A stretch of DNA of 64,000 nt from Moniliella sp. 'wahieum'. Its lineage: Eukaryota. A model generated the notes under the pieces. The model was not told where the DNA came from and made no database searches. It worked only from the letters and a program-made list of their open reading frames with translations. The stretch covers positions 1 through 64,000 of the forward strand of contig RSEE01000130.1 in assembly GCA_003971905.1 (NCBI GenBank), read 5' to 3'. Positions 2,622-59,733 of this stretch are shown in pieces. The position numbers and the translations under genes are program-made. How positions within the stretch are numbered: position 1 is the first letter of the stretch; each line of letters starts with the position of its first letter.

Positions 2622-2655
2622 CTTCTCCCCCCCACCAGTACCCCTAACCCAGCCC

Positions 2656-5600: not shown

Positions 5601-7347
5601 CCGTGCCGATGGACGAGAGTTTCTTTGACCTGGGCGGCCATTCGATCTTGGCTACGCGCTTGGTGTTTGAGTTGCGCAAGGCGTTCGTCATCAACGTGCC
5701 CTTGGGCGTCGTGTTTGACCACCCGACGGTCGCTGGTCTCCCAGGCCATCGACACGATCCGCGCGCAGGACGGCGCGTTGGGCTTGTCGGTTCCCGGGGC
5801 CAAGGAGGCCGAGGCGGTGGCCGCGGCCGACGAGACGGACTATGCTTCGGACCTGGCTCCGCTCGTTGCCGACTTGCCCGAAGTCTACCCGCCCGCCCGC
5901 CCGGCGACCGAGCAGCTCACCGTGCTCTTGACGGGTGCAACGGGCTTTTTGGGCAGCTACGTGTTGGCTGACTTGCTGCGGAAGCGGACGGTGTCAAGCG
6001 CGTCTTGGCCCATGTGCGGGCCAAGGACACCGAGGCCGGCCTGCAGCGCCTCCAGGCCGCAGGCACCAACCGCGGCGTGTGGGACCCGTCCTGGGTGTCC
6101 GCTGGCCGGGTGGAGGCGGTCGTAGGCGACCTCGAAAAGGAACGGCTGGGCGTCGACAAGCCGACGTGGGACCGGCTGGCCAAGGAGGTGGATGTGATCA
6201 TCCACAATGGCGCGTTGGTACGTGGACTTTGCCTGGCGAGCGGGGTGGATTGGATGGATGTGTACTGACCGTTGTTGTTCTTGTTTGTGGGGATGTAGGT
6301 GCACTGGGTGTACCCGTACCAGCGGCTGCGCGCGGCGAATGTGCTGAGCACGCAAGCGCTCCTGCAGCTGGCCGGCACGGGGCAGGCCAAGACACTGACG
6401 TTTGTCTCGTCGTCGGCGCTGGACACGAGCTACTATACGGATCTGAGCGACTCGCTCGCGTCGTCGGGGCAGGGCGCCGGGGTGCCGGAGAGCGACGACC
6501 TGGGCGGGAGCCGGACGGGGCTCAAGACGGGGTACGGGCAGTCGAAGTGGGTGGCGGAGCAGCTGGTCATGGCGGCGTCGCGCGCGGCGCCCGGGCCGGG
6601 ATCGTGCGTCCCGGGTACGTCGTCGGCGACGCGCAGACGGGCACGAGCAACACGGACGATTTCCTGGTGCGGCTGATCAAGGGGTGTGCGCAGCTCGGCG
6701 CGTACGCCGAGATCCGCAACCTGGTCAACATGGTGCCCGTGGACCATGTGGCGCGCATCACGACGCTCGCGGCGCTGGACATTACGCTGCCCGCCGAGCG
6801 CGTGCTGCAGTCGGCCTCGGCGCTCGGTCAGCCCTTCACGCCGACGCCCGTGTTCCACGTCGAGGGCCACCCGAAGGTGACGTACGACCTGGTGCTGGGC
6901 TCGCTCGCGCTCTATGGCTGGCCGTCGCGCGCGAAGAGTACATGACCTGGCGCAAGCATCTCGAAGAACACGTCTTGCGCAGCAGCAGCGCCACCGGCTC
7001 CAGCGACGAGGACAATGCCCTGTTCCCGCTCCTGCACTTTGTCCTGGACGACTTGCCCACATCGACCAAGTCGCCTTCGCTCGACGACCGCAACACGCCG
7101 CATCCTCACCGCCGCCCACGAAGCGCCGGCCGACGGCGTCGTCGCCGGCATGACGACCGACACGCTGGGCCTGTACCTCGCCTGGCTCACTGCCGTTGGG
7201 TTCTTGCCCAAGCCGACGCGCGCCGTGGGCACGCCCGTGTCCAGCGCGCACGAGCAGGGCGACGAGCACGCCCCTCGCACCGTCTTGCCTCTGCCCAAGG
7301 TCACGGCCGATGCCAAGGCGGCCCTGGGCCGCGCCTCGGCGCATTAA
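2656..7347 (+). CDS. LYS2: L-2-aminoadipate reductase (A-T-R NRPS-like enzyme of lysine biosynthesis)
   Basis: N-terminal LPTDYPRP; A-domain [37 protein letters not shown] motif [15 protein letters not shown]-domain [11 protein letters not shown] and [10 protein letters not shown]. Intron 6218-6298. Several 1-nt frameshifts. Confidence 0.96.
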
Positions 7348-11167: not shown

Positions 11168-11248
11168 CCTGGGCCGGACGAACGAGGTCAGCCCCCACCT
11201 CATCGCCCAATGATCTAATGGAGACGTACTACCATCCTAATCTGGACA
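11168..11248 (+). repeat. Direct repeat copy 1 (pairs with 12579-12663)
   Basis: cctgggccggacgaacg...catcgcccaatgatctaatggagacgtactaccatcctaatctggaca. Confidence 0.85.
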
Positions 11249-12578: not shown

Positions 12579-12663
12579 CCTGGGGCCGGACGAACGCGGC
12601 GAGCGCCCCCCAGCCCATCGCCCTATGATCTGATGGAGACGTACCACCATCCTAATCTGGACA
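12579..12663 (+). repeat. Direct repeat copy 2 (pairs with 11168-11248)
   Basis: cctggggccggacgaacg...catcgccctatgatctgatggagacgtaccaccatcctaatctggaca. Confidence 0.85.
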
Positions 12664-13835: not shown

Positions 13836-15708
13836 GGCGAGGTGCGTGGTGGTGGTGGTGGTGGTGGTGGAGATGGTGAAGATGGTGAGGGGCTGGTGCG
13901 CATAGCAAAGAAGGATGGCGGCGAGTCTCGTGTACAATTATCGATTACCCCGCACACGGGCTGTGCAGGGTACAGTAGGTTGTCTGCGGTGTACCGCGTC
14001 AGACGCCCGGCCCTGCCAGCCTGAGCGCGCACCAGGCCACTGTGCCCGCGGCAGCCAACCCTAGGCAGCGCGGGGTGCTGCCCCCGTGCGGCAAGGGGCG
14101 TGACTCGCTCCCGCACGGCACCGAGGCGGGGGCAGGCACCAGCCCAGTGCGCGTCGCGGTGCCTCGGGCGGGGCACATGGTCACATGGTCGCCTCGCGCA
14201 GCCGCACGCTCTGAGGCCACGCCCCCCCGCGTGACGTCACCAGCGCACAAACACTGGCGCCACACGTCCGCTGTTGGCACGCCCAGTGGCTAGGTACGCG
14301 CCGTCGCGTACGAATGGACCGAGCATAGCAGCCATTCCTTTTCCCACAGGCTTACTTTTTGCCAAGCACTCGGTTTTGCCAAGCCAGGTTGTGAACACCC
14401 CCATCTACATACCTCCTGCCATGCCCCGCAGAACGAGCAACTGCAACCCGATACGTACGGCCCTTTCATCTCAGATCTCAATTCTCAATTCTCAAGTCTC
14501 AATTCTCAATCTTGATAGCGTGGGACGTATCCCCTGTGCGATTTTACAGGGCAAGGTCCACCTTTGGCACGCACGCTCTGAATCCGCTTGTTGCACAACA
14601 GGCACCAAGCATCCTTCACCCCACCCGTTTCCTACTTGCGGTGGCGCCAGCACGCAGCCCATGCCGGATGAGCCAGTCGGTTAGTCCGTAGGCGTACTGT
14701 TTTGGAAGAGAAAGATACGGCTCGGTTCGATTCAACTTGGGAGTGGAGCAAAAGAGCATATGTGCCAGTAGACCTCAATCGCTATTCCGAGGCTGAATCC
14801 ATAGTACTATTTGCAAATGAATATCTCTTCGTTCTGTGGAAGACCCGATAAGTGACGCCATCCTTGAGCTACTGGCGTCGCGCTCTCGCGGGCCGGTGGT
14901 GGAAACGCCCATCAGCCGACCAAGAGACCACCTAGCAGCCCGTGGTTGACTCGAATATATTAGTGTGTCCCCGCGATCCCCGCTGAAATAAACCAGCGCG
15001 CTTGACCATCAGTTGCACCCTCCGACTCACTCATCTGTGGCATTTGCTCAGCGCCAGCTTATCCTGTTCAATACCGCAGTAACAAAAGGAGATGGAAATG
15101 GGGCAAAAGATGAGAGGATCATATTCGTCGAGTGGAAAGAGGGCGAGGTATATATTATGCTTGGGAGAAAGAGAACATGCGAAGCTGAATCACACGGGGG
15201 GAGCATAGTCAAAGGGGGAAAACAGGGCCTAGAACAAATCAGGGACCAGTCAATTGGGTGATCAAACGTGATCAAGTGGGTCTGATTCCGACACGCAGTA
15301 GACTACAAACGGGTGTTATATGTAGCCAGCAGGTGCGAAGCATTGGGCTCATCCCACTGTGTCACATCCTTTATCCTTTCTTTCACCCCCCCTAAATGGC
15401 GCGAGAGCACGTTAAAGCAGAGAAGTATCGCATGGGGGGTGGACGGAAGGCAGGAGCGGATGGGTTGACGGTTGAACCCAGACGGAGAAGGAAGAGAAGA
15501 AGAAGAAGGAGGGGTGGCAGTGCCTACCAGCAGCGCTTGAGTCCTGCCTGCTTCCCTGGGGCATGCGGGTAGGGTTGGGGGCGGAAACAGGGCGGAAGAA
15601 ATACGAAGCGGGGTGGGTTGCACCGATGCGGGCATATTTGTGGTGGATGGCCAGAAGAAGTGCCGCCACTGGGCTGGCCAGCCTTCCGGCCACCAGCGTG
15701 TTGTGTCC

Positions 15709-18897: not shown

Positions 18898-20227
18898 CTA
18901 TTCGCCCTGCCTAGCCGACTCGCGCGGAACAGGAGAGCGTGGGTAGGCGGATGAATTAACCGCAGTGGATGTGGACCGCTGCTGCCGGACCAGGGCAGAG
19001 GCGCGGGTCAAACCAATCGGCCTACCCGCGTTCGTCTGGGCAAGACGGGCGGGATGCGGGACTGGGAGGAAGGCGGTGGGGCGGCCGAGTCGCGCCAGCC
19101 GGCTGAACTGGTGGAGAGGGGTGGAAACAGTCGAAATGGGGACGTAGGGATGACGATGAGAAACAAGCGAATGCAGATAGGAACTAGCACTTGTCGCAGT
19201 GGGCTTGCCATAGCCACGGCCGCCCTGCCCTTGACCCAACGAGGGTCCGGTCCCACGGTCGGCTTGGGGTCTTGGTGGGGGCCAGGCCCAGCCATCAGGG
19301 GTGCAGTGGGCGCCTGGTGGTGGGCAGCAGGGAGATCGGGGCAGAGGGTGGGAGTAGGGTTGAAAACCCAGGGAAGAGGAAGGGGGTCGGGAAGCACCAT
19401 GGTTGAGGACGCTCTGGCGGGTTGGGATATTGCGCCAGTAAAGGAATCAAGATCACGGTCCAAAGCCCACGAGACGGATGAAGATGCAGGCGACGCCGAG
19501 GAGGAGGAGGATGGCTCTGCGAAGAGCGAAGGTCGTGCGCCGATGGGCAAGGCAGGCGTCGCGAGAGGGTGGGGGAAAATGGTGGACGTAGTTGCCTCGC
19601 TATTACTGCCGCGGAATGTGGATTCGCCATCAGTGGCCACTATTACGCCGCTGCCGAGGCCCGAAGGGAGAGTGCCCGTCGGACGACGCTGCCCGCTGCC
19701 TTCTCCCCGCACTTGTTCCCACCCCGGAGATCCTTCGACGTCTTCAGACTGTGCCCGTGGTTGGCTGGCCTGAGAGGGGGCATGGGCAAGGGGCGCAACG
19801 ACGGCCAGCGCGCATCGACGATGACCCTCCACCGCCTGCGACGGGTGGCGGGGCCTTTTTGAGAAGAGCGGCGTCGCACCAGGTCTCTTTCTTGCTACTA
19901 CTAACGAGTGCACAATTAACGCGGGTGGTGACGCGGCCTGGAGGGGTTGCTGCGCAGCCTATCCGGTCCTGTGCAACCGCGACGGACAGCTGGGAATGCC
20001 GCGTATTATGCGACAAGGAGTACTACTAGTAATAGTACCGAGTAAGTACTTACTGTGCGCCGCCCCGACTGTCCTCTTCCGATGACCGCCTTGCCTCGCA
20101 TCTCCGAAAGAGCCGCCCCGACCCCCTGAGACCCGCCTGTGTGCTGCCATAAATCGCACCCACGTAGTACTGCTGTGTCTGTCCGACGGCTTCAATGGGC
20201 CGAATTTTCCTGATGATCGATGATGCA
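18898..20227 (-). CDS. Hypothetical low-complexity protein (boundaries uncertain)
   Basis: A 301-aa minus ORF (19008-19913) with a basic NLS-like RKRP/KRPR segment, and a possible upstream exon ending at a GTAAGT donor near 20053. No recognisable domain. Confidence 0.3.
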
Positions 20228-21342
20228 TGATGCTAGGGATGGGGCATGGCCGCGCCAAGTGAGAGGGGGAGGATGAGCAGGCCGATGCTGATCGACACCC
20301 CCGCCGAGATTCATGTTTCGGTCGCACAGCACCACATCCCACATGCGTGTGCGGACGACGACCGTAAAGGGAAACGCCGAATACTCGAGTATAATGGTGT
20401 GTGGGTTAGACACGTCACGCGTCAATAAACGTGAATTTAACATGCTGGGCACAAGGTCGACGGTGATCGAGTGATCGATGGTTCGGATCAGCGGTGGCAT
20501 CCCCACGCTGGCTCGCGCGCGCTTACGCTTCCACACGAGTCTTGGACGAGACGGAGTACTATACTGTTGGCTGGAGGAGGCGTTCAACGGCTCGACGGAG
20601 TGCTGCAGCATGTAACCGACGGAGCAAAGAAAAGCGCGGCCATTTTACCGCCGCGGGGTTTAGCGATCGCCCTATCCACTCGTTGCCCCCAGCACCACTG
20701 ACATTATTATAGGCGGGTCAGCTCTGTCCTCGGTCGATCGGGCTAAAGGTTGAGGCAAAGCTAGATACTAGTATGGAACAGCGTGTGAAACTACCGGTCT
20801 CTCCGCTGTGGGTCCAACAGCTCACTCTCGGACGGAGAGCTTACTAGTAATGGTAGGTGCGACCTGGAATCGAGTTCTGACGGCCGGGTGCAGAGCGATT
20901 AAAGTGCCAGGGAGAGTGTCCTGCCACCCAAGTCGTACCTGGTGTGGTGTCCAGGGGACGTACGTGGATGGCGGGTGTGCCAGTACCGCTAAAACAGAGA
21001 TCGGAACCAGCAAAAAGCGAAGGAATTAGTAGTAAGAACCTGTGATGCAGCCGAAGAGCTTAGTTGAGTTGATTGTCTTCCGGTGTGGAAAACCAGAGAC
21101 TAGCCAACCCCTTTCGAGCTTCCCTGAGAGGGCCGTGCACATGGCCGACAGCACGGAACCGACAGGTCACTAATGGCTATTGAATACGGCGCCCCCACAA
21201 CGGGCAAAGGGGAAGGTGCAGGTTCACGGGCGGTTATCGTCCCCAACTGGTCGGCCGCATACTAGCCAGCTGCAACAAAAAAACAACCCATCATCCAGAT
21301 TCGTCAACCACCCCCATCAACAGTGCGCCCCCTAACACTACG

Positions 21343-33766: not shown

Positions 33767-34832
33767 GGGGGAAGGGTGGTGGGCGAGAGAAAGGAGGAGG
33801 GGGCGCGACAGAGGGCTGCGGGTGGGGTGCGATAAGGGCGGGTCTTATACACCGACCGCACCGGGCCAGTGCCGGCCAGTGCTGCACGCAAGGTGCATGC
33901 GACCGTGCAGCGTGCATCGCAGCTGCACGAGTGCGGGCTGGCTGGCGCAGTGCCGTTCCGTGCCCGACCGCGTAGCGTCCGCTTGTGCGTGGGCGTCTAA
34001 ATTGGCTCAGCACCCGCCGAGCCTCTGCGGTGCGGCAGCGGCGTGCTGCTGGGCAGGATGCATGATCACTGTGCGCTGACGTGCTGGGAAACCTTGTGAA
34101 ACGCCGTCCCCACCGCCGCACGGGGCGGCAGTGTGCCTCGCACCAGGTGACGCATGCCGTCGGTGATTGTCCCGCGTTTTCACGCTGCAGGTCCAATCCA
34201 CTGCCGCCATGCCTGCTGCGGGTGGCGCACAGCGCCTGTGTAGACGCGCGGGTGCAACTGACAGTGCGCAAACGAGCTAAAACAGCTATAAAACAGGTTA
34301 AAACGCACGGACTACGTACCAAACGCAGTAGGGGCACGAAGCGAAGCAGGCCATTCTACCCTATTCTGCCCCACTATGTACCCCTCCGCTTCCCCACCTG
34401 GGACTGAGAACGCAGCCCAAGTGCTGAGGTAACTGGTAACTAGTAACCGGCAACGGCAACCGGTAATGCATAATGAGCAACTACGCAACAAGGCTGAGAA
34501 TGGAAAGTACATCTGAGATCCGAAGCCCTGAGATCTCAAGGCGAAAAGAGCGATCGATCTGATGTCGACCTTCCAGCTTCCGCTCCTGTGCCCAGCCAGC
34601 CAGCCTGCCCGCTCGGCGGCAACATGCCGCGGGCAAAAGTGCAGTTGTTGCCGCCACGCATCGGGGTACATACCGAATTGTGTCCCACATACTCCACCCC
34701 ACCCACACTCCTCTCTCTTCGCCCACGAGAAGTAATATGGCCTCTCCCCGATCTCATCATGCACATGCATTGTGCAACTCGTGCCCCACACACAAACAGC
34801 GCTGTTGCTGCGCGTTCGGGCCGTTCAGGACC

Positions 34833-34870
34833 AGAACGTTGAATTGAACGTACGTTGAACGTTGAACGCT
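34833..34870. repeat. Heptamer palindrome repeat (AACGTT-G)n
   Basis: agaacgttgaattgaacgtacgttgaacgttgaacgct. Confidence 0.8.
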
Positions 34871-35178
34871 TGCGCCTGTGGGCCGTGGGGCGCAGAGAGA
34901 GGGGAAAAAGCGTTGCCACTTGCCACTAACGCCCACTGTTACGGTCGCGTCTCTCCATGTCCTGCCTGCCCCCCTCCCACGTGTGCTCCCTATCCTGCCA
35001 TACATGATGCATGATGCATGACGCGCATCAAAACCGTTCTTCTTGCTCCCGCACAGCAGTCACTACAGGTCACACGTCCCGACTCCTGGCCAAAACTAGT
35101 CAGTACTCAGTCTGAGTACTCAACCAGTACACTCAGTACCATTGCGTCTAGTGAAGCTAATGACTATAGCGTGCCTAG

Positions 35179-35248
35179 TGAAGCTGAAGCTTGAAGCTTG
35201 AAGAGCTTGAAGCTTGAAGGCTGAAGAGCTTGAAGCTAAAGCTTGAAG
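35179..35248. repeat. Heptamer palindrome repeat (AAGCTT-G)n
   Basis: tgaagctgaagcttgaagcttgaagagcttgaagcttgaagg...gcttgaag. Confidence 0.9.
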
Positions 35249-35303
35249 TGGTTTTGAAGTCACTAATGCGACTGTACCTATAGGACTGGTATGAATATGA
35301 CGG

Positions 35304-35345
35304 GATGATCGATGATCGATGATCGATGACCTCGACGATCGATGA
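35304..35345. repeat. Heptamer palindrome repeat (ATCGAT-G)n
   Basis: gatgatcgatgatcgatgatcgatgacctcgacgatcgatga. Confidence 0.9.
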
Positions 35346-38039
35346 CCGAAAGGTGAAGACCTACTATGACGTACTCGCCCCTGCGACCGCCCAGCACCCA
35401 GGGCCGCCTTTCTAGCCACTACTGAGTAACGAGTGAAATCAGCTACCAGTCACAATCAACCGTCACGCGTCGCGTCGCGTCACAACCGTCACATGCACAT
35501 TGCCCTTTTTGCCACTGGGTCACTGTGAGTCTCCGTAACTAGTCACCGGTCATCGGCATCACCGGTCACCACATGTCCGCTCGACGGCCCGGCGGTCCAC
35601 GGTTGTTTTTCCTAACCTTTCACGAATTCACGTTTCACGCGTTTCAACACCTATACAGCTAGTGCACTATCATGCATCACGCATCATGCATCAGTGCATC
35701 AATCTCCAAAGCATTGCATCATCGACATCATCCATAGCAGCAGCATCCTGGGCCATCCACCACCTCTGGATTCTGGCGTTTTTTCATTCGTCTCCCACGC
35801 GATGGTCCTCGTTTTGGTCTCCTCAGGCCTCAGGCTGAAAAGCTCTCAGATCTCAGTTACGTTCGAATCCTGCATTCATAAATTCGTAGCCGGTGTTTTC
35901 ACACCTCTACCGGCACATCCTACTACCATACCTTGTGCGGCCGTGTGATGTATGGCGGCACAGAGAAGGGGTGTTCAACCATCCGACGAACTCCGGCCTC
36001 CACCTCATCCGGGGCCGATTGAAGGATCGACAGCAATCCTTGGCCTTATTCTCGAGAGCCTCCGGACCCGCTTCGCTTCAGGCGGAGCCCACTAGTTCAA
36101 TGCCTCAAGCTCACGCTCCAGCTCCAAGGTACTACTCGTCTAGTTCTCCAAAACTCACCCTACGCATATGTATCAAATCACTCGTCGGGCGTTACAATGT
36201 CTCTCATTTTCTCTTTTCACTTTGCCGCCACACTGTCTATTGGCAGATTTGCCTTTGGGTCCGTAGACTGGAGTATACCCATTGCCACCCAGGTACCGGG
36301 TACCCCCTACCGCTTCATGCGTCTTGCGCGCGCCATGGTTAATGATTCAGAATAATGCATCATGCACATCATGCTCTCTGCGCCCTGCCCTACTGATCAC
36401 ATATGTCCTGCAAATTGAGACGTTTTCCGGCCACGTAACAGAAGTAACGCGTAACGCGTAACCGGCACCGTGCCCAGCGCGTCTACAACCTGCGTGGCAA
36501 CGCCTATGCCCCATGTAACCATGGAACCGGTAGCCGGCTTGCTGCGATGATACATGGATGCGCACAAAAGCCCTCTGTCCCACCTTGCCTTGCCCCACGC
36601 GTGTGGAGGATTGACCCTTCTGAGGTCCGAAAAGACACGAGAGAGGTTTTAGCTTCACGTGTCATGCATGTATGTCACAGAGGATCGCAAAAGAGGGCAC
36701 TTCTAGAGAGAGGGAAGAAGGAAACGCCCTAGGTCTGACGAATGGGTAACCTAGTGTGTGTATACCTGCGAGAACCAGAAAAGAGGCGTGGATTAATGCA
36801 TTGACTATGAATGTGGAAGCCCATGAGGGAATTGGAGAGCAGAAGGAATGTGTAGAGCCTGAGGGGCCGATTTTCAATCGATCCACACATACCTCACGGC
36901 CTCACCAACATACGTGCCGCGTGAGTGTCATGCATATCTACTGTACTAGTCCGCACCGGCCGCCCGCTGGCGTCCACCCCACACTGGGGGTGAGATCTGA
37001 GACTCAGATCTGAGAAGAGCAGGAACTCCACCTTCCTCCCCACAAACATCAGTCATCAGTGAGAGACTGGATACAGAGGAGGTACAGCTGAGCCTCAGCG
37101 CTGATGCGTGATGCCTTCCATGTGACATGTGATTCACAAAACTCTGGCAGTAATCATGCATCATGCTCATGCATAAAGCCTCAGGCGTGCTCAGCACTGG
37201 GGCGCTGAGGCGGAGGCCTGAGACATGATATGCACGCAGTAAAGATAGAGGCGTAGGCATGCGGCCCCGATGATCGATAACGTGTGTGGAGCAGCAAAAC
37301 CAATGCCCCGCACAACTTTTCCGTTCTCGCGACCCCTACTGGCACAAGTCGGTGCTCCGGAATCTCCCGGAATGAATCTGGAATCGACAACATGGCATAG
37401 TCCAACAGCAGTCACATGTCACAGAGAAGCCAAGAAAGCTCGGATGATCGATGCTATGAGGGAAGTTCCGGCCCGGCAACTGTCGAAAAACCGGATCCTC
37501 TGTGTCAAGAATGAGATCTGAGATCTGAGAAGCGGGAGTGTAGACTTGACTTGTTATACAAACGTTAGAGAGGCTGAGCGGACTGCCAGGCATTGGGTAT
37601 CTACTCCTAAGGGACCACCGGGCCTACAACCCGATCTGCGTTCCTGTCATGATGCTTTTTACTGTGCGTCCGTATTGAAGGTCTGGGGCTTCGCCCCAGC
37701 CTTCCCCCAGCCGGGTGGTGGCAGCCCACGGCCATCTTTCCCCCTGGGCCACTATTCCATAGGCCTCTGTGCCCACTCGTCCACGCTGTCCAGCGTTCCA
37801 TCGGCGATGGATCTGGCTGGTTTCGTACCACCACCACCCCAATCCAGCTGGCGTTGCCCGCCCCCAAGGTCTGTTGCCCCGTTTAACCCCTATTCCCAGC
37901 CTCCGTTTCCCGCGCCTCGTCTGCCCCCCGCGGCCCTCCGCTCAGGATCCTCCCTCTTCTGTGCCTTCTGGCCAGCGTCTGTGTCTCTGCAGCCATCTCC
38001 CACCCGTCCGGGCCTCGTTCTCACGCCCCTCCCTCCCAC

Positions 38040-38790
38040 GCGCCCTCAGACCATCCCCGCCATTCGCTTGGCCAACCCCTCCATCAACTTGGCCATCTCC
38101 GCCATTCATTCGCCCATCGCCACCGTCGGGTCGGCCAAGCGGAAGCAGGTGATGACACATGTCATTGTGCATGCCTGCTGGCCTCAGTCTGGCGCACTGG
38201 CCGTCCGTGGCCACCGCCTCTCGCCTGTCGCCAGCACTGCCGCGCTTGAGTTGGCCGTCTGGACGCTTGTCTTGGCCATGCGGACCCTCGTCTCGGCCAT
38301 CTCTCCACTTGCTTCGCCCACGTCCAAGCCGACCGTACAACCTGCTACTCCATCCGCTTCCGACGCTGTTCCGGCCCATGCGCACCACTTTGCCCTACTC
38401 CCCTGCTGTCGCTGAGCTTGAGTTCCTCTTATCGAACGTCGCCTTGGCCATGTACAGCCTGGTCGCGCACATCGGTAAGCATGCCGTCTCATCCCATCCC
38501 ATTCCATCCCATCCCACCTTACCTCATTCTGACCCGCTCTTGCACCAGCCGCTTTTTACTCCTCACCACATCGCTCTGCGTCTACGTTTGCGCTCGCCCG
38601 GCGGCAACTGTTGGTTCATGTTGTGTCTGGCGTCTCCAAGCTTGTGCCGGCCATGTCAAATCATGCGCCCGTCATATCCAAGTCTGTACTTGCCATGTTC
38701 TTGTGCCCATTACCATCAACCTTGCGCTCGTCATCCCCAAGCCTGCGCTCTCCATCCCCAAGCCTGTGCTCCCCATCTTCCACATCAAGC
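38040..38790 (-). pseudogene. Degenerate 21-nt (7-codon) repeat array, probably a decayed heptad-repeat coding sequence
   Basis: Minus frames give MGE*MAEMAKLMEGLAKRMAGMV*, EMAETRVRMAKTSVQTA and MGSTGLG-MESAGLG-MTSARL. In-frame TGA stops sit where CGA occurs in a neighbouring unit. Confidence 0.35.
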
Positions 38791-40661
38791 ATTGATAGGA
38801 ACATACTAATGCATGTCATCATTCAGCCTATCTCCGTCCACTCTAGTCTGTTGGGAGCATGCATCACCGAAGCATCTGAGCACCTGTCATGAGCTGGCAA
38901 TCATATCGCGTTTGACAGCTCTTCTCCAACAGTGTAACAGCGAATCTTGAACATGTTTGCAGGCTGTCTACGCCCGACTTGGGGTGAGATGTTCGCGACG
39001 GTGCTGTAACCAACTTTGACACCGCATCCGTTGAAAAACAACAACGACTGTCATAGTTGCTTGAGCGCCTCAGCAGAGGGCATCCGTGGGGCTCTTTCGA
39101 CGGATCAAAAGTACGACTGCGGAAACTGTAATTTTAACGGACATGGAGCAAATGCTCCCGGAGAGAGGTACCTCAGGGCAGGCCAGCTCCGCAATACATT
39201 TACTAACTAAGCGTGGACGCCAGTGACTCTAGCGTGCGCGCAAGTGGCTCTCTCAGTGCGAAGGCCCAGAAATCAGGCCTTGCTCGGCAGTACATTGACT
39301 AACATCTCGGCAGTACATTGACAACTAACTCTGTAGAAGAACCATCTTTCCGATCAGCTTGCTTGCCCTCCCTCGCCCATCGGGAGACTCCCCGCTTTCT
39401 CGTCCAGCTCCCAAGTGCCACCTCTTCGCGGACGCTGCCTGGCTCCGCCCGACAAACATTAAAGAGTACTGTCGCGACCCTCCTACGTTTTCACGCCAGT
39501 GTTCCTTGGACTTTGGATCTGTATGATGGTTTCAGTCCTCCGTGAGTCTTGCCCCGATGGACAGGGAATGTCTCCGCCTGTGGGAAGCCGACAACCCCCC
39601 GTCACAGAGATGTGACAATGATCGCCGTGCCACTCGTCCTCTACTCCCTCTCTGTTGGTACATCGGTCCCTTCAACACACACACCTTTCCCCGTAACCCA
39701 CGGTTCGGCAATCCTATAACTTGCGCGCAAGTGAGGCACCATGATTATATCCCATTGCACCGAGAGAGAAACCTTGGGCGTTGATACGGTGGTATTGTGG
39801 ACGTTCAACGTTGTGTGTTGTGATGGTGACTCGCTCCACCGATCGCGGTGCACTCCCTGCCTCACTAGTCCCCGAGGCTCTGCGGGCTCGGAAGATTGCT
39901 GATGAGCGTGGTACCCGCGTATTATAAGCCACCGACTAGTAACCTTCTCCCGTAGCCCTCTTGTTGTCCTGCTGTCTACTACCAACGCCCATCTCTCGCC
40001 CGCAATCGAGATCCCCTACGCTACTGCCCTAAACGCTTCAGCATCCATTGCTGTCTCCGTAGCTAGGTGTGGACCAGGACGTCGGCACAGTTGAACATCG
40101 ATCATCGAGAATGGCCGCTTGTGGCTTTGGGACGGCCCACCCAGGTGTTTAATGTTCCTTTAATTGTACACGGTCTAGATGCAGTGACCAAGGAGTTGCG
40201 TGTACTATACTCGCTGTCACCACGGATGGTATATAGGCATCGATCCAGCAGACACGATGGGAGAAAAGGGGAGAGGCGAATGAATTTGCCGTGATGAATC
40301 GGCTCGGCAAGTACATCCCATCTGCCAGAGGTGGGAAAAGATTCAGGCCAGTGAAGAGAGAAGTGAAGAGCTCAATGAGTGGCAAGAAAGGGAGACACAG
40401 GAATCATGAAAGTGAGTCAGAACGTTTCCCAGGCAAGGAGACCAGGAGGGGATATAAGTGGAGGCAATGCTTTGCCTGCCTTTGGAAGGGCAACATCGTA
40501 CACGGAAAAGCAGGCCCACGAAAGTAATGAAGTACGGGAATCGACCGGCAACAGTCGCATGACATCAAGGGGGCGCGAGGTGCTTTTCCACGCCCGTACT
40601 ACCGCACAGGAAAGCACTGCGGAACAAGCAGCCAGAGAGTAGATACAATCCCACGCTGTGC

Positions 40662-41896
40662 CTAAGCTGACACATCCGCCTCAGCTGAGAAGGAGGCGTT
40701 GGGGACAATCTGTTTGACTGCCTGGGCCACTTGGCTTGGGGCTGGAGCCTTGCCCAGGGCAGAGGAGAGGTGGGCTTCAACGGTGCCGGCCAGTTGGGAC
40801 GGGAGAGCCTTCGCGGAAGCGCCCTCTGCGGACGCAGAGGCCTGCACCTGAGCGATCACCTGGGTCGGAAGAAGGCTGGACAGAGTGCTGCCGGCCGCCT
40901 CAATGTTGGCCTTGCCGCTGGCTTCCACCTGCTGGAACGAGCCCTGGAACTTCTGACTGATCTCCTGGGGCAGGCTAACCATCGCTTCTTTCACGATGGG
41001 CTGGACCTGTGCTTGGACCGAGGTAACCTTGGTGCCGCTCTGAGTAAGCACTTCTTTCACCGCGGCCTCCACATCGCTTCCAGAGGGGACATTGCTCTTG
41101 ATCTTGCACAAGGCCGTCTTCAATGCCGAGCTGACATCTTGGGACGAGGCAGCGCTAGCACCCTTGGGCAGCGCCTGCTTGATCTGCCCCACCAGCTGCG
41201 ACACGGTGGTACTGTTGATACTGGCGCTGGCAGCCACGTTCACACCGTCCCGCTGAGACAGGGGGAGAGAAAAGGACTTGGCCAGGTCGTCGGCCTTGTT
41301 AAACTGGGGCACGGCTTGCTGGACAGCTTGGGCCAGGGTACTGCTCGAGGGCTGCTTACCGCCCAACTTGGCCACGCCCTGTTGCACTGCCGACGCCACG
41401 TCGGCCGCAGAGGGAGCACTCGAGGCGCTCGGCATGACCTGCTGAATCTCCTTGGCGAGAGAACTGGCGTTGATTGTGCCACTCGGAACCGCGCCAGCCT
41501 GGTTTGCATCGCGCTGGCTCAGCTGCTTGGGAAGCTCTTGTTTGACCTCGTCCACCACTTTGGACAAGGACGGAGTAGAGGGGGAGGCAGATGGCGCAGC
41601 CGCCACGCCAATCTTGCGAGCATGACGCTCATGGAACCGGCGCCGGTGCGATGGCTCGCGGGAGCCCAACGGGACAGAACCCGCCAGCTTCTCTGCCTGG
41701 CTGGTGATTTTGCCTGAACCGCTCTCGACGGCGTGTTGAATGTCGTTGGGCTGGGGCAGTTGTTGAGCCTCTGGAAAGAGCAGGAAACACCAGAGGGTTA
41801 GTATAATGTGTACAGGGGTTGCCAAATGGGGGAGAAAGGAGACTCACGGACGGCTACTGCCACCAGGAGCAAGGAGGAAAGGAGCGTGAGGCGCAT
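40662..41896 (-). CDS. Secreted Ala/Ser/Gln-rich repeat protein (effector or cell-surface candidate)
   Basis: Exon 1 41896-41848 plus intron 41847-41771 (GTGAGT...CTAAC...CAG) gives the signal peptide MRLTLLSSLLLVAVAVQA. It is followed by HRRRFHERHARK, repeated helical units and two LSQRD motifs. Confidence 0.85.
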
Positions 41897-42928
41897 CAGT
41901 AGGAGAAGAGGGGGGATCAAGAGAGTGTGTGGGAGGAGGGCTGGGCGCGAGGAAGCGCAGAGTGCTGGGGAAGGGGAGGGAGAGAGAGGACGCAAGTGGC
42001 GGGCAGGGGAAGAGGGGGACCAGCCAAGTGCGCTGACAGATGGCGGGTTTATATATGAGTGGCTCTGGTTGATACTTGAGGCCGATCGCAACAGAGGCTT
42101 GCTGCCCATGGAAGGTGGAGGAGGGCACTGGCAGTGCCAGTTTGTGGGGGCGCAACGAGCGCTGGCGTTGTAATGATATTAAAGTGCGCGAGCGAGGTTG
42201 GGGCGGCTGGCTGTCTTGTGTCTTGTGCGCCCCTGTGCCTGCGTGCAATCGGGCGAAGGAAGAAAGCGAGCCGCTATTAGCGGTTGTGGGGGGAGGGCTG
42301 CGGATGCCCTGACGGAGAGGCGCGACGGCGCAGTCTTTGGCCGACAGCAGGAAGCGCGCGCGAGAGAGGAAGGCGCCGCGCGGGCGCCGCGCTCTCGCTG
42401 CCCCCACCGAGGGAAGGGCACAGCGACGACGAGAGACCTCTAACTCCTGGCCTGGGATGGATGGCCGTCACCGTCATCAGTCATCTTCCTATCTTGAAAC
42501 GTTGGTCAGAAGCAGAGAGCAACCCTTTCTTCGGAGCAATACACCCGAGCAAGCAAGCGCCGAGGCCCAGCAAGTGCTTCGAGCACCAGGAGCGAGAGAG
42601 CGTGCAGAACAAACCGGTGATGGCATCTTCTTTCCTCTTCTTGAAGCTTAACGTCGAACCCAATCGCTTTGCAGAGTGATGTTTGATCGACAGAGGTACG
42701 ATGAGATGTTTACTGTCGATGTATATAACCTGTAAGAGAGAGAGATCGACGAGGGCTCAGGGCTCACACGCGCGTACTAGGTTGCTAGCGTTCATCTGGT
42801 CGAGACCACTTGGACGTGTGCTCGTGTAGGAGCGACACTTCTTGTGGCCTATCATGCAAGCGCGCGCGCGTGAGATGCGTTTTCCTGACGTGTGTGTGGC
42901 GCCCTCAGGCCTCAACGTCTTACCGTCT

Positions 42929-42953
42929 CAACGTTTAACGTTTAACGTTTAAC
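42929..42953. repeat. Heptamer palindrome repeat (AACGTT-T)n
   Basis: caacgtttaacgtttaacgtttaac. Confidence 0.85.
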
Positions 42954-43886
42954 CCTCCACTCCAACACGACTTGGGCTCGCCCCACCGGCGGCGTTTCGC
43001 AATGTGATCTCCATCGATCACCATTTCCACTTTTGCAGCGCTCTGAGCCTTTCTGGGGCACCATGAACTTGACGCTTCTTACGATCGAGCTTCAAGCTTC
43101 ACGCGCGAGCTTCAAGCTTCACGTGTCCATACCAACAGCAGAGCCAGTGTATATAACTCTTTGCAGCGCTCGTGTTGTATGCAACGCTGTTGGCTCTCAG
43201 AAATCAGTCTGATCTACCACACTATCGCACAGAGAATAAGAGCGTTTGTCGGATGCCCTGCTCTTCGTTTGCTCTTTGCTCGCTCTCGCCTTTCCCGATG
43301 GGCAGTGCAGTGCCGGTGTACGCAGAGACAGAGGGCGGATGGAGCGGAGGCGACCAGGGTGCATTCTATCACCCGCTGATGGTGCATGGTGTCTCGCAGT
43401 GGCGAGCGACTGACGATCAATATTCGATGTCAATGTCAACCGTCAAGCTTCAAGTACTCTCAGTCAAGGTTCAAAATACGCCAACAGAGCAAGGCGAGGT
43501 AGACGCGGGACAGGACGCGTGTTATGATAATCCGATGACGCAGTGGGCCAGGGCCTTCCTGCCCATGGCGCAGATGGTGTTACAGTTGTGAGATCTGAGA
43601 CGGGGGGGACCGGTGAGAGCTTGCGACTATATAGGCTGGTTGCCATGGCTGAGGAAGGGCACTAGGCCAGTCCATGCATCATGCCATAGCTCGCGTTGCG
43701 CGCGCTTGCCTTTCCCATGTCATCGATCTTTCTTAGCGCCCTCATCGACTCATACTCAGTACTCATCGGCTCATCAGCCTATCCGGGCGAACCTTTCCTA
43801 GGGGCTGTATGATAGGCCTTTTATTAGGAGCGGCCTAACCAGCTTGCTGTTAGCGTTAGCCGCCCTAATCCACAATCGGTCGCATG

Positions 43887-44116
43887 GGTAACCGGTAACC
43901 GGTAACTGGTAAACGGCCTAAGGCCTAAACTACCCTAAACCAGTGGCCTACTACAACATCTTTGTTTCGCTCAACGTACGTATGATACGTTCAACGTACT
44001 CAACGTTTACACGTTTACACGTTCACGCGTTCACGCGTCCACGTCCGTCATAACGACACGATGATCGATGACATCGATGACATCAGATCTCGGATCAATC
44101 AGATCTCAGATCTCAG
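43887..44116. repeat. Cluster of different heptamer palindrome repeats (ACCGGT-A, AGGCCT-A, AACGTT, ACGCGT, ATCGAT, AGATCT-C)
   Basis: ggtaaccggtaaccggtaac; ggcctaaggcctaa; ttcacgcgttcacgcgt; gatgatcgatgacatcgatg; cagatctcagatctcag. Confidence 0.8.
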
Positions 44117-44556
44117 AGGAGCAACCTTGTTCCCGGCGGCCCATCGCCCATTCCATCAGCTGAGATCCTGCTTCTGGTCCGTTCCCCTGTGTCCAAGACC
44201 GTAGCAGTGAATAACAACTACCAAGTGACACCTTCTTGCTCCTCTGGCATACACTACCGACTTGACGGACTGCTATCGTCTCGGCATGGCATTGCATTCG
44301 CGTACAACGAACTGTCACATGTCACATGTCACTGGCCAACACCAACCCCCAAACATATCGTTGTAGGCCAATTTGATATAGCTCTTCATCTCATTAGGTT
44401 TCGATTCCTCTAGCGCAGTCACTGGTCACTGGTTACCACCCGTAACAATATTCTCATCTTGTCATCTTTCTCACTGGACGTGCCGCGTGGCACGACACAC
44501 GTGGCATGGTCGCACATAGCGGTAGGCTGTAGTCGGTATTCGGTAGTCGGGAGCCT

Positions 44557-46597: not shown

Positions 46598-47268
46598 CGT
46601 GGCGGTGGAGATGGGGGGGGGGGGAGGGCGAGGGTGGTGGGGAGGGGCCAGAAGGTGGTGGTGAGGAGGACGGACCGGCGGCAGGTATTTTAACACACGA
46701 ACTGCGACGCAGCACACTGCCCCCGCGCGGCGGGTCTTGGGCCGTGCGTCGGCTGGGCCAGTGCGCCTCAGCGCCTCAGCACCTCAGCAGCGGCCCCCCT
46801 GCCACACTGCTGCTGTGCCGTCTGGCCCCGGAAGAAGAGGCAAGAACAGGCGACAATGGATTAATGGCCGGCACGCCCCGTCACATCCCTCCTCGTCCTC
46901 AGCATCCCCAGCACCGCCCGCGCCATCCCCACATCCCCAGCGCCATTCGCCCACTTTCTGACGCCCCATTGGTGCACTTCACGCGATAGCCTCCCCTGCT
47001 ATACTCATCCCTCTCATCCATCCCCCCCCCCGGCCCAACAGCATCGCATACATAGCCCACGTGCCATGACGCGTCCGTAGCGCGTAAGCCCAATTGCCCC
47101 CCTTGCGCCTATGTATTGATCCGCCCCTTGCCCCTATCCACCCGTGCGCACCGGTGACGAGTGCCACCCCATCCATATTCCATGCAGCACAGCGTGTGGC
47201 CACACGCAGGCAGGCAGGCGCACCCACCCACCCCGCCCCGCCCCGCAGCTCGTGTGCCGACTGCCCTA

Positions 47269-48429: not shown

Positions 48430-48997
48430 CTAGTGACGCACATGGGCCGGCATGGCTTGGTCATGGTCTTTGTGCGGTTTGTGCAGGGCTGCGCGTGCGT
48501 TGGTCGGTGCTCGTTGTCTGTTTTGCCTTGTGGTTTGTGTTAGTGGCTGTTGGGGGCCCTGTTGTGTGCACAACGCAACGCATGTGCGTAGTAGGACTAG
48601 ACTGTGCAATCATCGGCCATCCATCTGTCTGACGAGTGAAACTGTGCATGCACGGCAGGAGGACGTCCTGTTCCAGACTTGAGACGCCATTTGTGGTGCG
48701 TGCCATGGATCGCTCCTCTGGACGGGGGCTGGGGCAAGGAGAAGTATGGGGAGGTGGAGCATGCCTGTCTTTTTCGCTTCAAGCGAGGGGTGGCGGGAGC
48801 GCTAGGGTTGGCCCCGCGTGCACGGACCCTCTGCCTGGTGCTTGAAGCTTCAAGCTTCAAGTTGAAGCTTGATGTGCTGGGGCTGGGGCACGCGCACCCG
48901 ATGGGGCCATGTGCCGGCACAGACACCCTTGGTGGGCACCAGCCGCGCCCTTGGCTCCTGGCCACCACTACCACCACCACCACCACCGCCATCTCCA

Positions 48998-49771: not shown

Positions 49772-50321
49772 AGCCCCAACCTGCCATGGGTCCCCGTGGT
49801 CACGACTCGTCCCTGGTCCATGCCGCCCTGCACCGTGGCCAGGCTAGAATGGTCATGTCTTTACGGCAGGGTGATGAGTCAAGTTGGACCGCCCGTCCCT
49901 GGCTCCAAGGGGTGAAGGTGAATGCATGGACATGTTTGACTTGGGTTGGCTACCTTGTGGTCTGGTGGCACGAAGCTGCCTACTACCTTATGGCTCGGCG
50001 ACCAGTGCTCAGTACTCAACAATGCAGACATGTGGCTTCCACTGCGCCTCGCCCGTCGTAGACTCCGGCAGTGACGAAGGCAGCAGGTATGCCCCCGGAT
50101 CAAAAAGAGAAAAAAATTGCCTCCTAGCCGAATCGAACGACTAATCTTCGCATTACGAGTGCGACGCCTTACCATTGAGCCAAAGAGGCAGATTGCGTAT
50201 GTCCCGCACGTTCCCAATACGTAGCCACCATGCAATTCGAATCCGGTGGTTACCATGGATGTTTGCGGTTGCTCAGGCTTTCACTGCCATCCCCCCATGC
50301 TGTGCATTGACGAAAGAGTCG

Positions 50322-50370
50322 TCTGTCTGTCTGTCTGTCTGTCTGTCGTCTGTCTGTCTGTCTGTCTGTC
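50322..50370 (+). repeat. (GTCT)n microsatellite
   Basis: tctgtctgtctgtctgtctgtctgtcgtctgtctgtctg... Confidence 0.9.
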
Positions 50371-50578
50371 CGTCACCCGACAGTGCAACGGCCACGTTCA
50401 TCTGCAAAATAGCATTCTCCAGAAATACTAGTAACGGAGCAATCCCAGTTCAAGTTGAGGTGAATCAAGGAGGGTTGAAAAGCAAGGGAAGGTGTTGCTT
50501 TCAGATCAAAATCAACGTGACGATTCATCTGAACTCCTTCTTCTCTCCGTGCGCCCCTTCCTCCCGAAAAAAACGATC

Positions 50579-52901: not shown

Positions 52902-54648
52902 GGCAAAGTACAGTCCAAGTTGGAAGGGTGAAGAAAACAATTCGGCGCAGCCGGCGGCCTAGTTATATCAGTCCGCAGTCCGGAGAGACAGTCTCGGCCG
53001 GTCTGCATTTTGGGCACACGAGGCTTGGGGTACCCCGAGGGCGGTTGGCACAGCGCAAGCCAGCTACCAAGCTAGCCACACCTGAGTCCTGACGTGTGCT
53101 AGGTGTGGCCCAAGGCCACAGGGGCGCCCCGCCCCGCCGCGCTGGCCACACCACAACGATGGCCCGTCGCGCAATGGACACCGCGTGCTGAGTCCTAGTG
53201 CAGTCCATTCAATATCAGGCCCGAGCCCCGCGTCTGGGTAACGGGTACCGGGTAACGCGGACCGAGCAACTAGTGAATATTGATGGTCCAACCTGGGCCT
53301 GAGCGCCTGAGCTGCGCCTCAACCAACGTCAACGCGTCAGCGCGTCAGCGGCGCCTCTGCTGGGTGGCGGTGGGTTTGCCGGGACGGAAACCCAAAGGGC
53401 AGGAGGCGAGTGTGCACGTGTGCATCCGCCTCTCCGGTCTCTGATCTCACTCCACCTGTGCCATCTCTATACCATCACACCATCACAACCACCTTTTACG
53501 GCCCGCGTCTGGTCCACTGTGCCAGTCCGCTTCGCATGGCCGAAGGGCCCGCGCGCATTGCAGATTGCAGATTGTCGATTGGTATTGATCCCATCAACGT
53601 TCAACATTCAACTGAACCTTGTCGATCCAGCTAATCAATGACATGTCCCATGTTCCCATTTGTATCATCTGCATCATCGACTTCATCGACCTTACTAGCC
53701 ACGTTCCACCCCACCTGTTTTGCATCTTCATCGACCATCCACTGCCGAAGACGAAGGTCATTAATCCATAATCATTCCCCTGCTTATAAAGAGTTGAAGA
53801 GCATTATGAGCTGGAATCTTGTTGGCCATCAGCCGTATAGCGCGCCCACCTTGAATCTGGTCCATGGTTCACTGATGCCGACCACTTCCTCCTCCCATCG
53901 AGCACTTGAAGGACATTTGCCGTCCGTGCCAACGATCAACTAGCCCGACGTAGGTACCACATCCAGGCGTGAGACGCCATGCACAACACCCCGGGGTTTC
54001 CCCATTGTGGCTTATGATTTTTGCTTCCAAGTAGAAGCAGGGATCATCATCTCATTGGCATTCGCTGCGGGTATTGCTTCTTTGTCTAGCTCCTGTCCCT
54101 TGCCTTCTCTTCCCTTCTGTTCGTAGCCTGATCACGGTTCAATCGTAATGGTTGTTACATCTTATGCTTGGTGCCACCGCGCGGATTTTGTTCGTCCGCC
54201 GCAGCCTTCTCACACCCCAGTAAGCGGGATGCCACCACACCAAACCGCATTGGCTCTCAGGTAGAGGTGGCTATGGAGAGGGGCAGCACAACAATGCACA
54301 GAGGGTGGCCGTGGATTGCGTCGCAGAAGGATAACGGATGGGCGTGTTAGATGTTATTATCGTTGGAGTCTCACTGAGATGGCACCCTGGAGGGCAGAGG
54401 GCCAGGATGAAGAACAAGGTGACAGGGAAAGTTCGTTCGGGGGTGGCAGGCGAATGGGTCGCGTGCAGACGGGAGATGGCGAGAGGAAGCACGACAGCAC
54501 CAGCGGTGGTGGCGGCCGGGCAATGACTGCACTGGCACACGAAGAGCAGTCTGCTGTTGGATGCTGTGGACGGGCCTACATCGAGTACTCCGACTGAGCA
54601 GCGATTATCGATTAACGATGGGGTACAGGGCGGAATTGGCGTGTGACC

Positions 54649-54689: not shown

Positions 54690-55868
<1,179 letters not shown>

Positions 55869-55869
<1 letters not shown>

Positions 55870-55925
55870 CATGGCATCGCATGGCATCGCATGGCATCGC
55901 ATGGCATCGCATGGCACCGCATGGC
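55869..55925 (+). repeat. (GCATGGCATC)n 10-mer tandem repeat in the DIM1 3' region
   Basis: gcatggcatcgcatggcatcgcatggcatcgcatggcatcgcatggcaccgcatgg. Confidence 0.9.
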
Positions 55926-56121
55926 TTGGTCGGTCTGGCCTCTGGCCTGGTTATGTCTTTTCTGTTCTGTGTTCTCTGTTCTGTGCCAGGGTCGGGTCGT
56001 CCCGATACCCCCTCTCCACCACCCCCTCCCCGACTGCCTCTCTCGCTCCGGCTGCGCTGGGCTGTCTATAGCAACCTGCGACGTTGGATAGATGCCTGTG
56101 CTGGTCATTCTGCACTGTATT

Positions 56122-59700: not shown

Positions 59701-59733
59701 CGTAACGCGTAACCGGTAACCGGTAAGCGGTAA
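59701..59733. repeat. Heptamer palindrome repeat switching from ACGCGT-A to ACCGGT-A
   Basis: cgtaacgcgtaaccggtaaccggtaagcggtaa. Confidence 0.85.

Follow-up and report, generated by a model that had tools for sequence, protein, structure and literature searches.

The first 64,000 nucleotides of contig RSEE01000130.1 of Moniliella sp. 'wahieum' (GenBank assembly GCA_003971905.1, forward strand; hereafter the window) carry a family of short elements in which a four-base palindrome is flanked on both sides by the same T-N-A trinucleotide. Each seven-base unit can equally be read as a six-base palindrome that begins with A and ends with T, followed by one spacer base, and arrays with quite different palindromic cores share this grammar and its period of 7. 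The grammar is real and strongly non-random, and it is apparently undescribed, as no account of it was found in the limited collection of literature that we searched. The explanation that we prefer, tentatively, is that the elements are scars of a lineage-specific templated insertion anchored at T-N-A (a staggered break combined with a hairpin or a template switch), repeated or amplified by slippage, and that they are neither selected motifs nor plain microsatellites. All counts given below refer to this one assembled window of 64 kb.

The T-N-A rule of the period-7 arrays

The initial annotation of the window, made from the sequence alone, had listed a series of period-7 arrays with unrelated sequences but a single structural rule. 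All of the listed arrays are present, at or a few bases from the positions given for them, and the rule is borne out by a census of exact period-7 runs of at least 14 nt (n = 49). In 20 of these runs the unit consists of a 6-bp palindrome and one further base, and every one of the 20 palindromes is of the form A-N4-T. The composition-weighted chance is 1.8% for a unit of this A..T type and 11.5% for a unit built in the same way on a palindrome of any class, giving a binomial probability of 2.4e-22 for at least 20 of 49 in the A..T class. With palindromic units set aside, period 7 is a repeat class like any other. Units of this kind show no enrichment outside period 7 (28/112 at period 5, which is about chance, 3/75 at period 6, 0/20 at period 8 and 1/8 at period 9).

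When hexamer palindromes were grouped by their first base and compared with 50 dinucleotide shuffles, those of the A..T class were in excess (265 observed versus 156 in shuffles), while the counts for the other classes were 361 versus 385 (C..G), 324 versus 388 (G..C) and 179 versus 174 (T..A). A peak at an offset of 7 is exclusive to A..T palindromes, both for pairs with the same core (13 versus 0.08 in shuffles) and for pairs with different cores (6 versus 0.32), and nothing comparable was found in the window for C..G, G..C or T..A palindromes, or for TA or TNNA junctions. The comparison across periods and palindrome classes that had been named beforehand as a check on the grammar does not refute it: the excess is restricted to period 7 and to the A..T class, i.e. 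to the T-N-A junction.

Counted directly, a T-N-A, a 4-bp palindrome and the same T-N-A follow one another in 63 instances, compared to 1.4-2.2 in shuffles. The flank is TGA in 25 of these units, TCA in 24, TAA in 10 and TTA in 4, so that the spacer base N is G or C in 49 of 63. No enrichment was seen in the window for other classes of trinucleotide, for TA or TNNA flanks, for other gaps, or for cores of 2, 6 or 8 bases. The cores use 14 of the 16 palindromic tetramers (GCGC and TATA are missing), which argues for templating of the palindrome rather than recognition of its sequence. Non-palindromic cores in T-N-A-N4-T-N-A are found 50 times (about 26 expected), and many of them are one change away from a palindrome. 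The reciprocal pattern, in which two copies of one core surround a T-N-A, occurs only 25 times, and the basic element is therefore one core with a T-N-A on either side. Of 80 pairs of spacer bases, 63 are direct repeats, 8 are complementary and 9 are neither.

Some arrays depart from this pattern. Period-8 arrays that also start with T-N-A are found at 44004-44043, 46763-46788 and 53297-53350 (for example TTACAC-GT and TGAGGC-GC), and GCGC, which is never a period-7 core, occurs in period-8 arrays behind a 4-base TSAG/TSAC flank. The heptamer array at 14468-14510 is anchored on TCA; its first core is palindromic (GATC) and its later ones are not (ATTC, AGTC), so that it resembles an element continued through plain slippage.

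Anatomy and location of the elements

The 63 units fall into 50 loci, of which 39 have a single core, nine have two and two have three. To delimit the element, the extension of period-7 identity past the outer T-N-As was measured, with the longer side set to the right at each locus. The left extension is 0 bases in 34 loci, 1 in 10, 2 in 5 and 3 in one, counts that match chance if the element begins exactly at the T. Among the 34 loci without left extension, the right extension is 2 bases in 16, 3 in 8, 1 in 5, 4 in 4 and 0 in one. Maximal period-7 runs that hold an A..T palindrome are mostly shorter than 14 nt (58 of 78), with modes at 12 and 13 nt, and among the longer arrays lengths of 19 and 26 nt are preferred. 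From the boundary extensions and the run lengths, the canonical element is typically TNAxy(y'x'TNAxy)n, with a length of 5+7n bases, in which the copies of a 5-base direct repeat are separated by the reverse complement of the repeat's own last two bases. The sequence TNAxy followed by the reverse complement of xy and a second TNAxy occurs 70 times on the two strands, compared to 0.05 in shuffles, and these account for 70 of the 109 structures in the window that consist of a 5-mer, an inverted 2-mer and the same 5-mer.

Models of the element were compared by likelihoods from simulations with 0-12% decay, fitted to the observed table of extensions. The 5+2 structure (log-likelihood -114.9) fits better than the best 7-bp tandem duplication in any phase (-134.5) or a 3-bp duplication of T-N-A whose filler is a 4-bp palindrome (-188). 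Other combinations of stagger and filler were considered and rejected: (5,1) and (4,2) are not specific to T-N-A, and (6,2) and (7,2) are so only mildly, with many of their fillers being the self-complementary CG or GC.

No locus lies in the open reading frames (ORFs) supported by Pfam matches (0 of 50 in 24,531 nt, P = 3e-11). This is expected for insertions that shift frames and carry stop codons, and it argues for real insertions or deletions purged from genes and against an artefact. The elements were also said to be densest in two intervals, and indeed 42 of the 63 units (32 of the 50 loci) lie within 34.4-37.6 kb and 42.7-44.5 kb. Both patches are gene-poor and lower in G+C than the window as a whole (about 60%), and each borders on minus-strand genes at their 5' ends; at 38.8-40.6 kb, a non-coding stretch of similar kind holds no locus. 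TCA/TGA is the most enriched trinucleotide of the patches (1.87-fold, and 1.54-fold once perfect units are masked). Some loci are in intervals that resemble gene 3' ends (7.5, 20.2 and 59.7 kb), and the gene map, built from Pfam matches and G+C at third codon positions, is rough. We therefore claim no promoter rule, and an exclusive location in promoters was rejected as a firm statement. The orientation of the spacer (purine or pyrimidine) is random, with 25 versus 25 loci in 25 runs by hand count. The patches and the main arrays are as follows.

34400..37600, patch 1, gene-poor: 26 units of T-N-A plus palindrome in 20 loci; G+C fraction about 0.51-0.54; no Pfam-supported ORF inside
34834..34868, TGA-ACGT (AACGTT-G) array with irregular members AT and ACGTACGT
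35003..35021, TGA-TGCA (ATGCAT-G), 19 nt = 5+7x2
35102..35120, 19-nt palindrome AGTACTCAG-T-CTGAGTACT, a TCA-GTAC element joined to its inverted copy
35179..35248, longest array, based on TGAAG (AAGCTT-G), about 10 units, with fillers C, CT, AGCT and GC
35304..35329, TGA-TCGA (ATCGAT-G), 26 nt = 5+7x3
35542..35570, TCA-CCGG (ACCGGT-C) elements, with ACTAGT in phase ahead of them
35669..35701, TCA-TGCA (ATGCAT-C) elements
35821..35856, TCA-GGCC and TCA-GATC elements
36444..36462, TAA-CGCG (ACGCGT-A), 19 nt
36991..37015, TGAGA-TC-TGAGA fused with its inverted copy (palindrome at 36993-37011)
37119..37166, TGA-CATG and TCA-TGCA elements
37512..37530, TGA-GATC (AGATCT-G), 19 nt = 5+7x2
42700..44500, patch 2: 16 units in 12 loci
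42930..42953, TTA-ACGT (AACGTT-T), 24 nt
43086..43123, two copies of a 20-bp unit with a TCA-AGCT element in each copy
43887..43928, core-changing TAA series: CCGG, CCGG, CTGG, (ACGGCC), GGCC
44059..44117, TGA-TCGA, a period-9 variant TGACATC-GA, and TCA-GATC (19 nt)
44313..44332, TCA-CATG (ACATGT-C), 20 nt
20212..20233, in-phase switch TGA TCGA TGA TGCA TGA
48840..48872, AAGCTT-G/C elements in both orientations
59701..59726, in-phase switch TAA CGCG TAA CCGG TAA CCGG TAA, a change of core already noted in the initial annotation

At two places a T-N-A/palindrome element meets its own inverted copy, giving perfect palindromes of 19 nt (9+1+9; 35102-35120 and 36993-37011), and there the spacer changes from C to G or from G to C.

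Origin of the elements

In the proposed event, a T-N-A site would be targeted and the five bases TNAxy duplicated directly, as by fill-in of a 5-base staggered break. The bases y'x' would be set between the two copies as the reverse complement of xy, the dinucleotide that ends the duplicated stretch and serves as their template. They could come from a covalently closed hairpin that is opened two bases from its tip, or from a template switch to the other strand over a very short distance. In all, the event would add 7 bp, with a new A-xyy'x'-T palindrome and a T-N-A junction. Arrays of 5+7n bases would grow either by repeated events at the same end or by later slippage of the 7-bp unit, consistent with the fixed increment of 7 bp. 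If xy were altered by a point mutation and a further event took place, a matching y'x' would be written, and so a different palindromic core that is still in phase; this would explain the in-phase switches from TCGA to TGCA (20214) and from CGCG to CCGG (59703), in both of which the two halves of the core change together. Complementarity of arbitrary bases in elements that are too short to fold suggests that templating took place at the moment of origin.

Two claims of the earlier reading bear on this proposal. Ordinary slippage was said not to explain the grammar, and this holds, given the 20 of 49 runs in a class expected at 1.8% and the lower likelihood of tandem duplication; simple slippage is excluded because slippage of a 7-bp unit must yield at least 14 nt. 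A hairpin-type process at T-N-A sites was also suggested, which agrees in part with our results: the T-N-A anchor and the two templated reverse-complement bases speak for it, while iterated fold-back or hairpin-primed synthesis is contradicted by the directly repeated spacer, as fold-back or a rolling hairpin would flip N at each turn. For the same reason we rejected sister-end pairing and template switching by strand displacement over more than three bases, all of which predict a complementary spacer.

Several points weigh against templated insertion at T-N-A. The product is highly stereotyped: after control for the anchor, different lengths of stagger or filler show little or no enrichment, whereas end-joining footprints are usually heterogeneous. 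The model also needs an asymmetry, with T-N-A at one end of the 5-mer and the filler only at the other, whereas the targets of dimeric transposases are normally symmetric. Neither a transposon nor a terminal inverted repeat was found in the window, nor was any domain of a transposase. Two products recur more often than a uniform target model would allow: TGAGATCTGAGA has eight matches at seven loci and TGAAGCTTGAAG six matches at four loci, with 0.01 expected for each. Runs of less than two units are in excess at other periods too, so that the run-length argument is weak by itself and the case is carried by the phase of the boundaries and by the likelihoods, and the boundary statistics come from 50 loci in a single window of 64 kb.

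The nearest known parallels are transposon footprints. The hAT, Transib, MULE and RAG systems form hairpins on the flanking DNA and leave footprints after end joining (PMC5499845). In the footprints of hairpin-forming transposons (hAT, Transib, MULE), as in the P nucleotides of V(D)J joining, a retained direct target duplication flanks bases that are reverse-complementary to the adjacent flank (PMC5499845). The elements of the window share this feature, since their inverted filler is complementary to the end of the retained duplication (70 versus 0.05). The mode of the duplication is 5 bases, which matches Transib (5) alone, not hAT (8) or MULE (8-9 or more); a 5-bp duplication is a hallmark of Transib/RAG, and among eukaryotic superfamilies only Transib is described as having it (PMC1131882). 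The target of Transib is GC-rich and symmetric, e.g. CASTG (PMC1131882), whereas here T-N-A stands at one end of the 5-mer. Unlike the footprints of hairpin-forming transposons, the elements are accompanied by no transposon found in the window, have a near-invariant 5+2 product and a one-sided filler, and are stacked in phase. A search of the window for dispersed and inverted repeats returned low-complexity families only, and no element resembling a miniature inverted-repeat transposable element was found. None of the known transposon families fits the elements fully.

Other systems share single features. Short template-switch mutations, in the four-point model, can also make a perfect small inverted repeat and a small change of length in one event; unlike the elements here, they are not known to have a fixed site, length or anchoring trinucleotide. 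The heptamer repeats of bacteria (cyanobacterial short tandemly repeated repetitive sequences and the GGGAATC repeats of Xanthomonas) are likewise intergenic, of period 7 and divided into many sequence families, but their palindromes arise from two opposed blocks of a non-palindromic unit, while here each unit is palindromic and the host is a fungus. A TTCACG-type patch near 35620 is present as described in the initial annotation. The accompanying statement, that intergenic DNA of Ustilago is rich in such heptamers, was not confirmed, as nothing relevant was found in the literature searched or in PMC3152781, which was checked for mentions of Ustilago and of 7-bp repeats.

We infer a break-plus-hairpin chemistry from the anatomy, and an enzyme may be involved, although we consider the following version rather unlikely. 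A candidate T-N-A-specific nuclease, possibly a domesticated DDE transposase, would cut 5-base staggers in the open intergenic DNA of this lineage, and hairpin repair would write stereotyped insertions of 7 bases, continuously making hexamer palindromes, i.e. potential dimer-binding sites, in regulatory DNA.

Among the alternatives, selection for cis-regulatory arrays survives best, though it appears improbable. The hexamer palindromes would be sites of homodimeric transcription factors that were multiplied by slippage and whose palindromy was kept by selection; ACGCGT, the MluI cell-cycle box, is one example. Such a role would suit the confinement of the loci to non-coding DNA, their concentration in two long gene-free intervals beside gene 5' ends, the recurrence of identical 12-mers at up to seven loci and the paired changes that preserve the palindrome. 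However, 14 cores with a common T-N-A flank and 7-bp spacing are a property of a process and not of one factor, and recognition of the palindrome by a protein is unlikely given that nearly all possible cores occur. Neighbouring dimer sites would overlap at a spacing of 7 bp, constraint on the two filler bases extends to single elements, in which there is only one palindrome, and on the rough gene map some loci (7.5, 20.2 and 59.7 kb) are at apparent gene 3' ends.

Slightly less probable again is the view that the arrays are hairpin-prone microsatellites, a 7-base analogue of the CNG triplets that expands through hairpin-stabilised slippage and needs no site-specific enzyme. As in hairpin-forming (CNG)n, the unit is a palindrome plus one unpaired base and the array is self-complementary with regular mismatches; indeed, no other type of heptamer could pair with itself better than palindrome plus one. 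Slippage of units takes place in the window, as shown by non-palindromic arrays such as TCA-ATTC at 14476, and a 72-nt array folds better as single-stranded DNA than all of 200 shuffles (z = -3.3). The two true 19-nt palindromes reach z of about -2. In contrast to (CNG)n, the arrays are very short (mostly 1.7 units) and their predicted hairpins weak: arrays of two or three units fold with -2.4 to -7.7 kcal/mol (z from +0.47 to -1.8), and a single-core element, the form of 39 of the 50 loci, does not fold (0 kcal/mol). Run lengths peak at 12-13 nt, under the 14-nt minimum for slippage, and palindromes are not enriched at periods 5, 6, 8 and 9. Thermodynamics does not explain the flank-base rule, since C..G, G..C and T..A palindromes, which pair at least as well, are unused. 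Thermodynamic structure is thus weak as a driver of the arrays, and the structure-based signal that had been offered as an alternative explanation is unlikely given the same folding results.

Stacked excision footprints of PIF/Harbinger-type (IS5-like) elements have a somewhat lower probability still. To our knowledge, these transposases are the only DNA-processing enzymes with a T-N-A target. T-N-A would be a 3-bp target duplication, as in the PIF/Harbinger superfamily, and the 4-bp palindrome would be made of 2+2 bases from the inverted element ends, which would account for the fixed 7-bp increment and the equal frequency of TGA and TCA (25 and 24). The repeat is, however, of 5 bases and not 3 (5-6 on one side), where a footprint of this kind predicts no repeat past T-N-A and 2-3 bases more are found on one side, and this model has the worst likelihood (-188). 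The cores vary, so that 14 different terminal dinucleotides would be required in place of constant element ends, and N is mostly G or C, while the usual target of the superfamily is TWA. Harbinger excision is reported to be mostly precise, and neither an element nor a transposase of this kind was found in the window.

An artefact of assembly, amplification or base calling is very improbable: although the evidence consists of assembled sequence only, an artefact would not respect reading frames (0 of 50 loci in 24.5 kb of coding sequence), the arrays decay via point changes, and similar in-phase switching arrays are found on independent metagenome contigs.

These contigs (L075:7690-7760 and L016:5780-5830) switch core and spacer together in phase, from TCA-AGCT to TTA-TCGA and from TAA-ACGT to TGA-AGCT, and the grammar may also be present, far more sparsely, in other fungi. 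A metagenome scan for (AAGCTTN)3 gave 121 loci in 639,764 nt, with 51 other cores in the flanks compared to 58 expected; the boundaries of these arrays were left out of the analysis, since the search pattern biases them. The lack of an excess in the flanks indicates that the grammar is not universal, in line with the lineage-specificity proposed for it earlier.

If templated insertion at T-N-A is correct, one stereotyped mutational event shapes about one site per kb of the non-coding DNA here, and the tandem repeats of a genome need not be products of slippage. The palindromic hexamers that it creates de novo would be raw material for dimeric transcription-factor sites, and the event would suggest that a site-specific activity of breakage and repair has gone unrecognised in fungi. 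Its signature, TNAxy-y'x'-TNAxy, could be sought in any genome, and population data would allow it to be polarised.

Gene content and other repeats of the window

The domains encoded by the ORFs of the window are eukaryotic and include those of a reductase resembling non-ribosomal peptide synthetases (NRPS-like), a DEAD helicase, a kinase, a Rad54B-like SNF2 protein, exportin-T, SSRP1/Pob3, trehalose-phosphate synthase and Dim1, among others. The best matches of the proteins are fungal, mostly basidiomycete, and lack close similarity (unnamed proteins with 59% and 60% identity); for the SNF2 fragment, the best named match is from Malassezia nana, with 49% identity. The ORF beside patch 2 had no usable match in a protein atlas look-up. 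The NRPS-like gene at 2648-6942 (+) carries condensation, AMP-binding, PP-binding and NAD_binding_4 (reductase) domains.

Between the two patches, four repeats with a period of 21 bp are located at 38051-38777 and 39210-39251, in or beside an ORF without a Pfam match (37522-38806, +), and may belong to a gene for a repeat-containing protein. A 10-bp tandem repeat, TGGCATCGCA, is present in about seven copies at 55852-55931, directly after the rRNA adenine dimethylase gene. The single Rfam match in the window is a tRNA gene at 50118-50189 (-), and a GTCT tetranucleotide array lies 130 nt from it (50318-50374). A local duplicate of about 80 nt (11171-11248 and 12583-12663), with 83-91% identity between copies 1.4 kb apart, is found in a region without Pfam matches.

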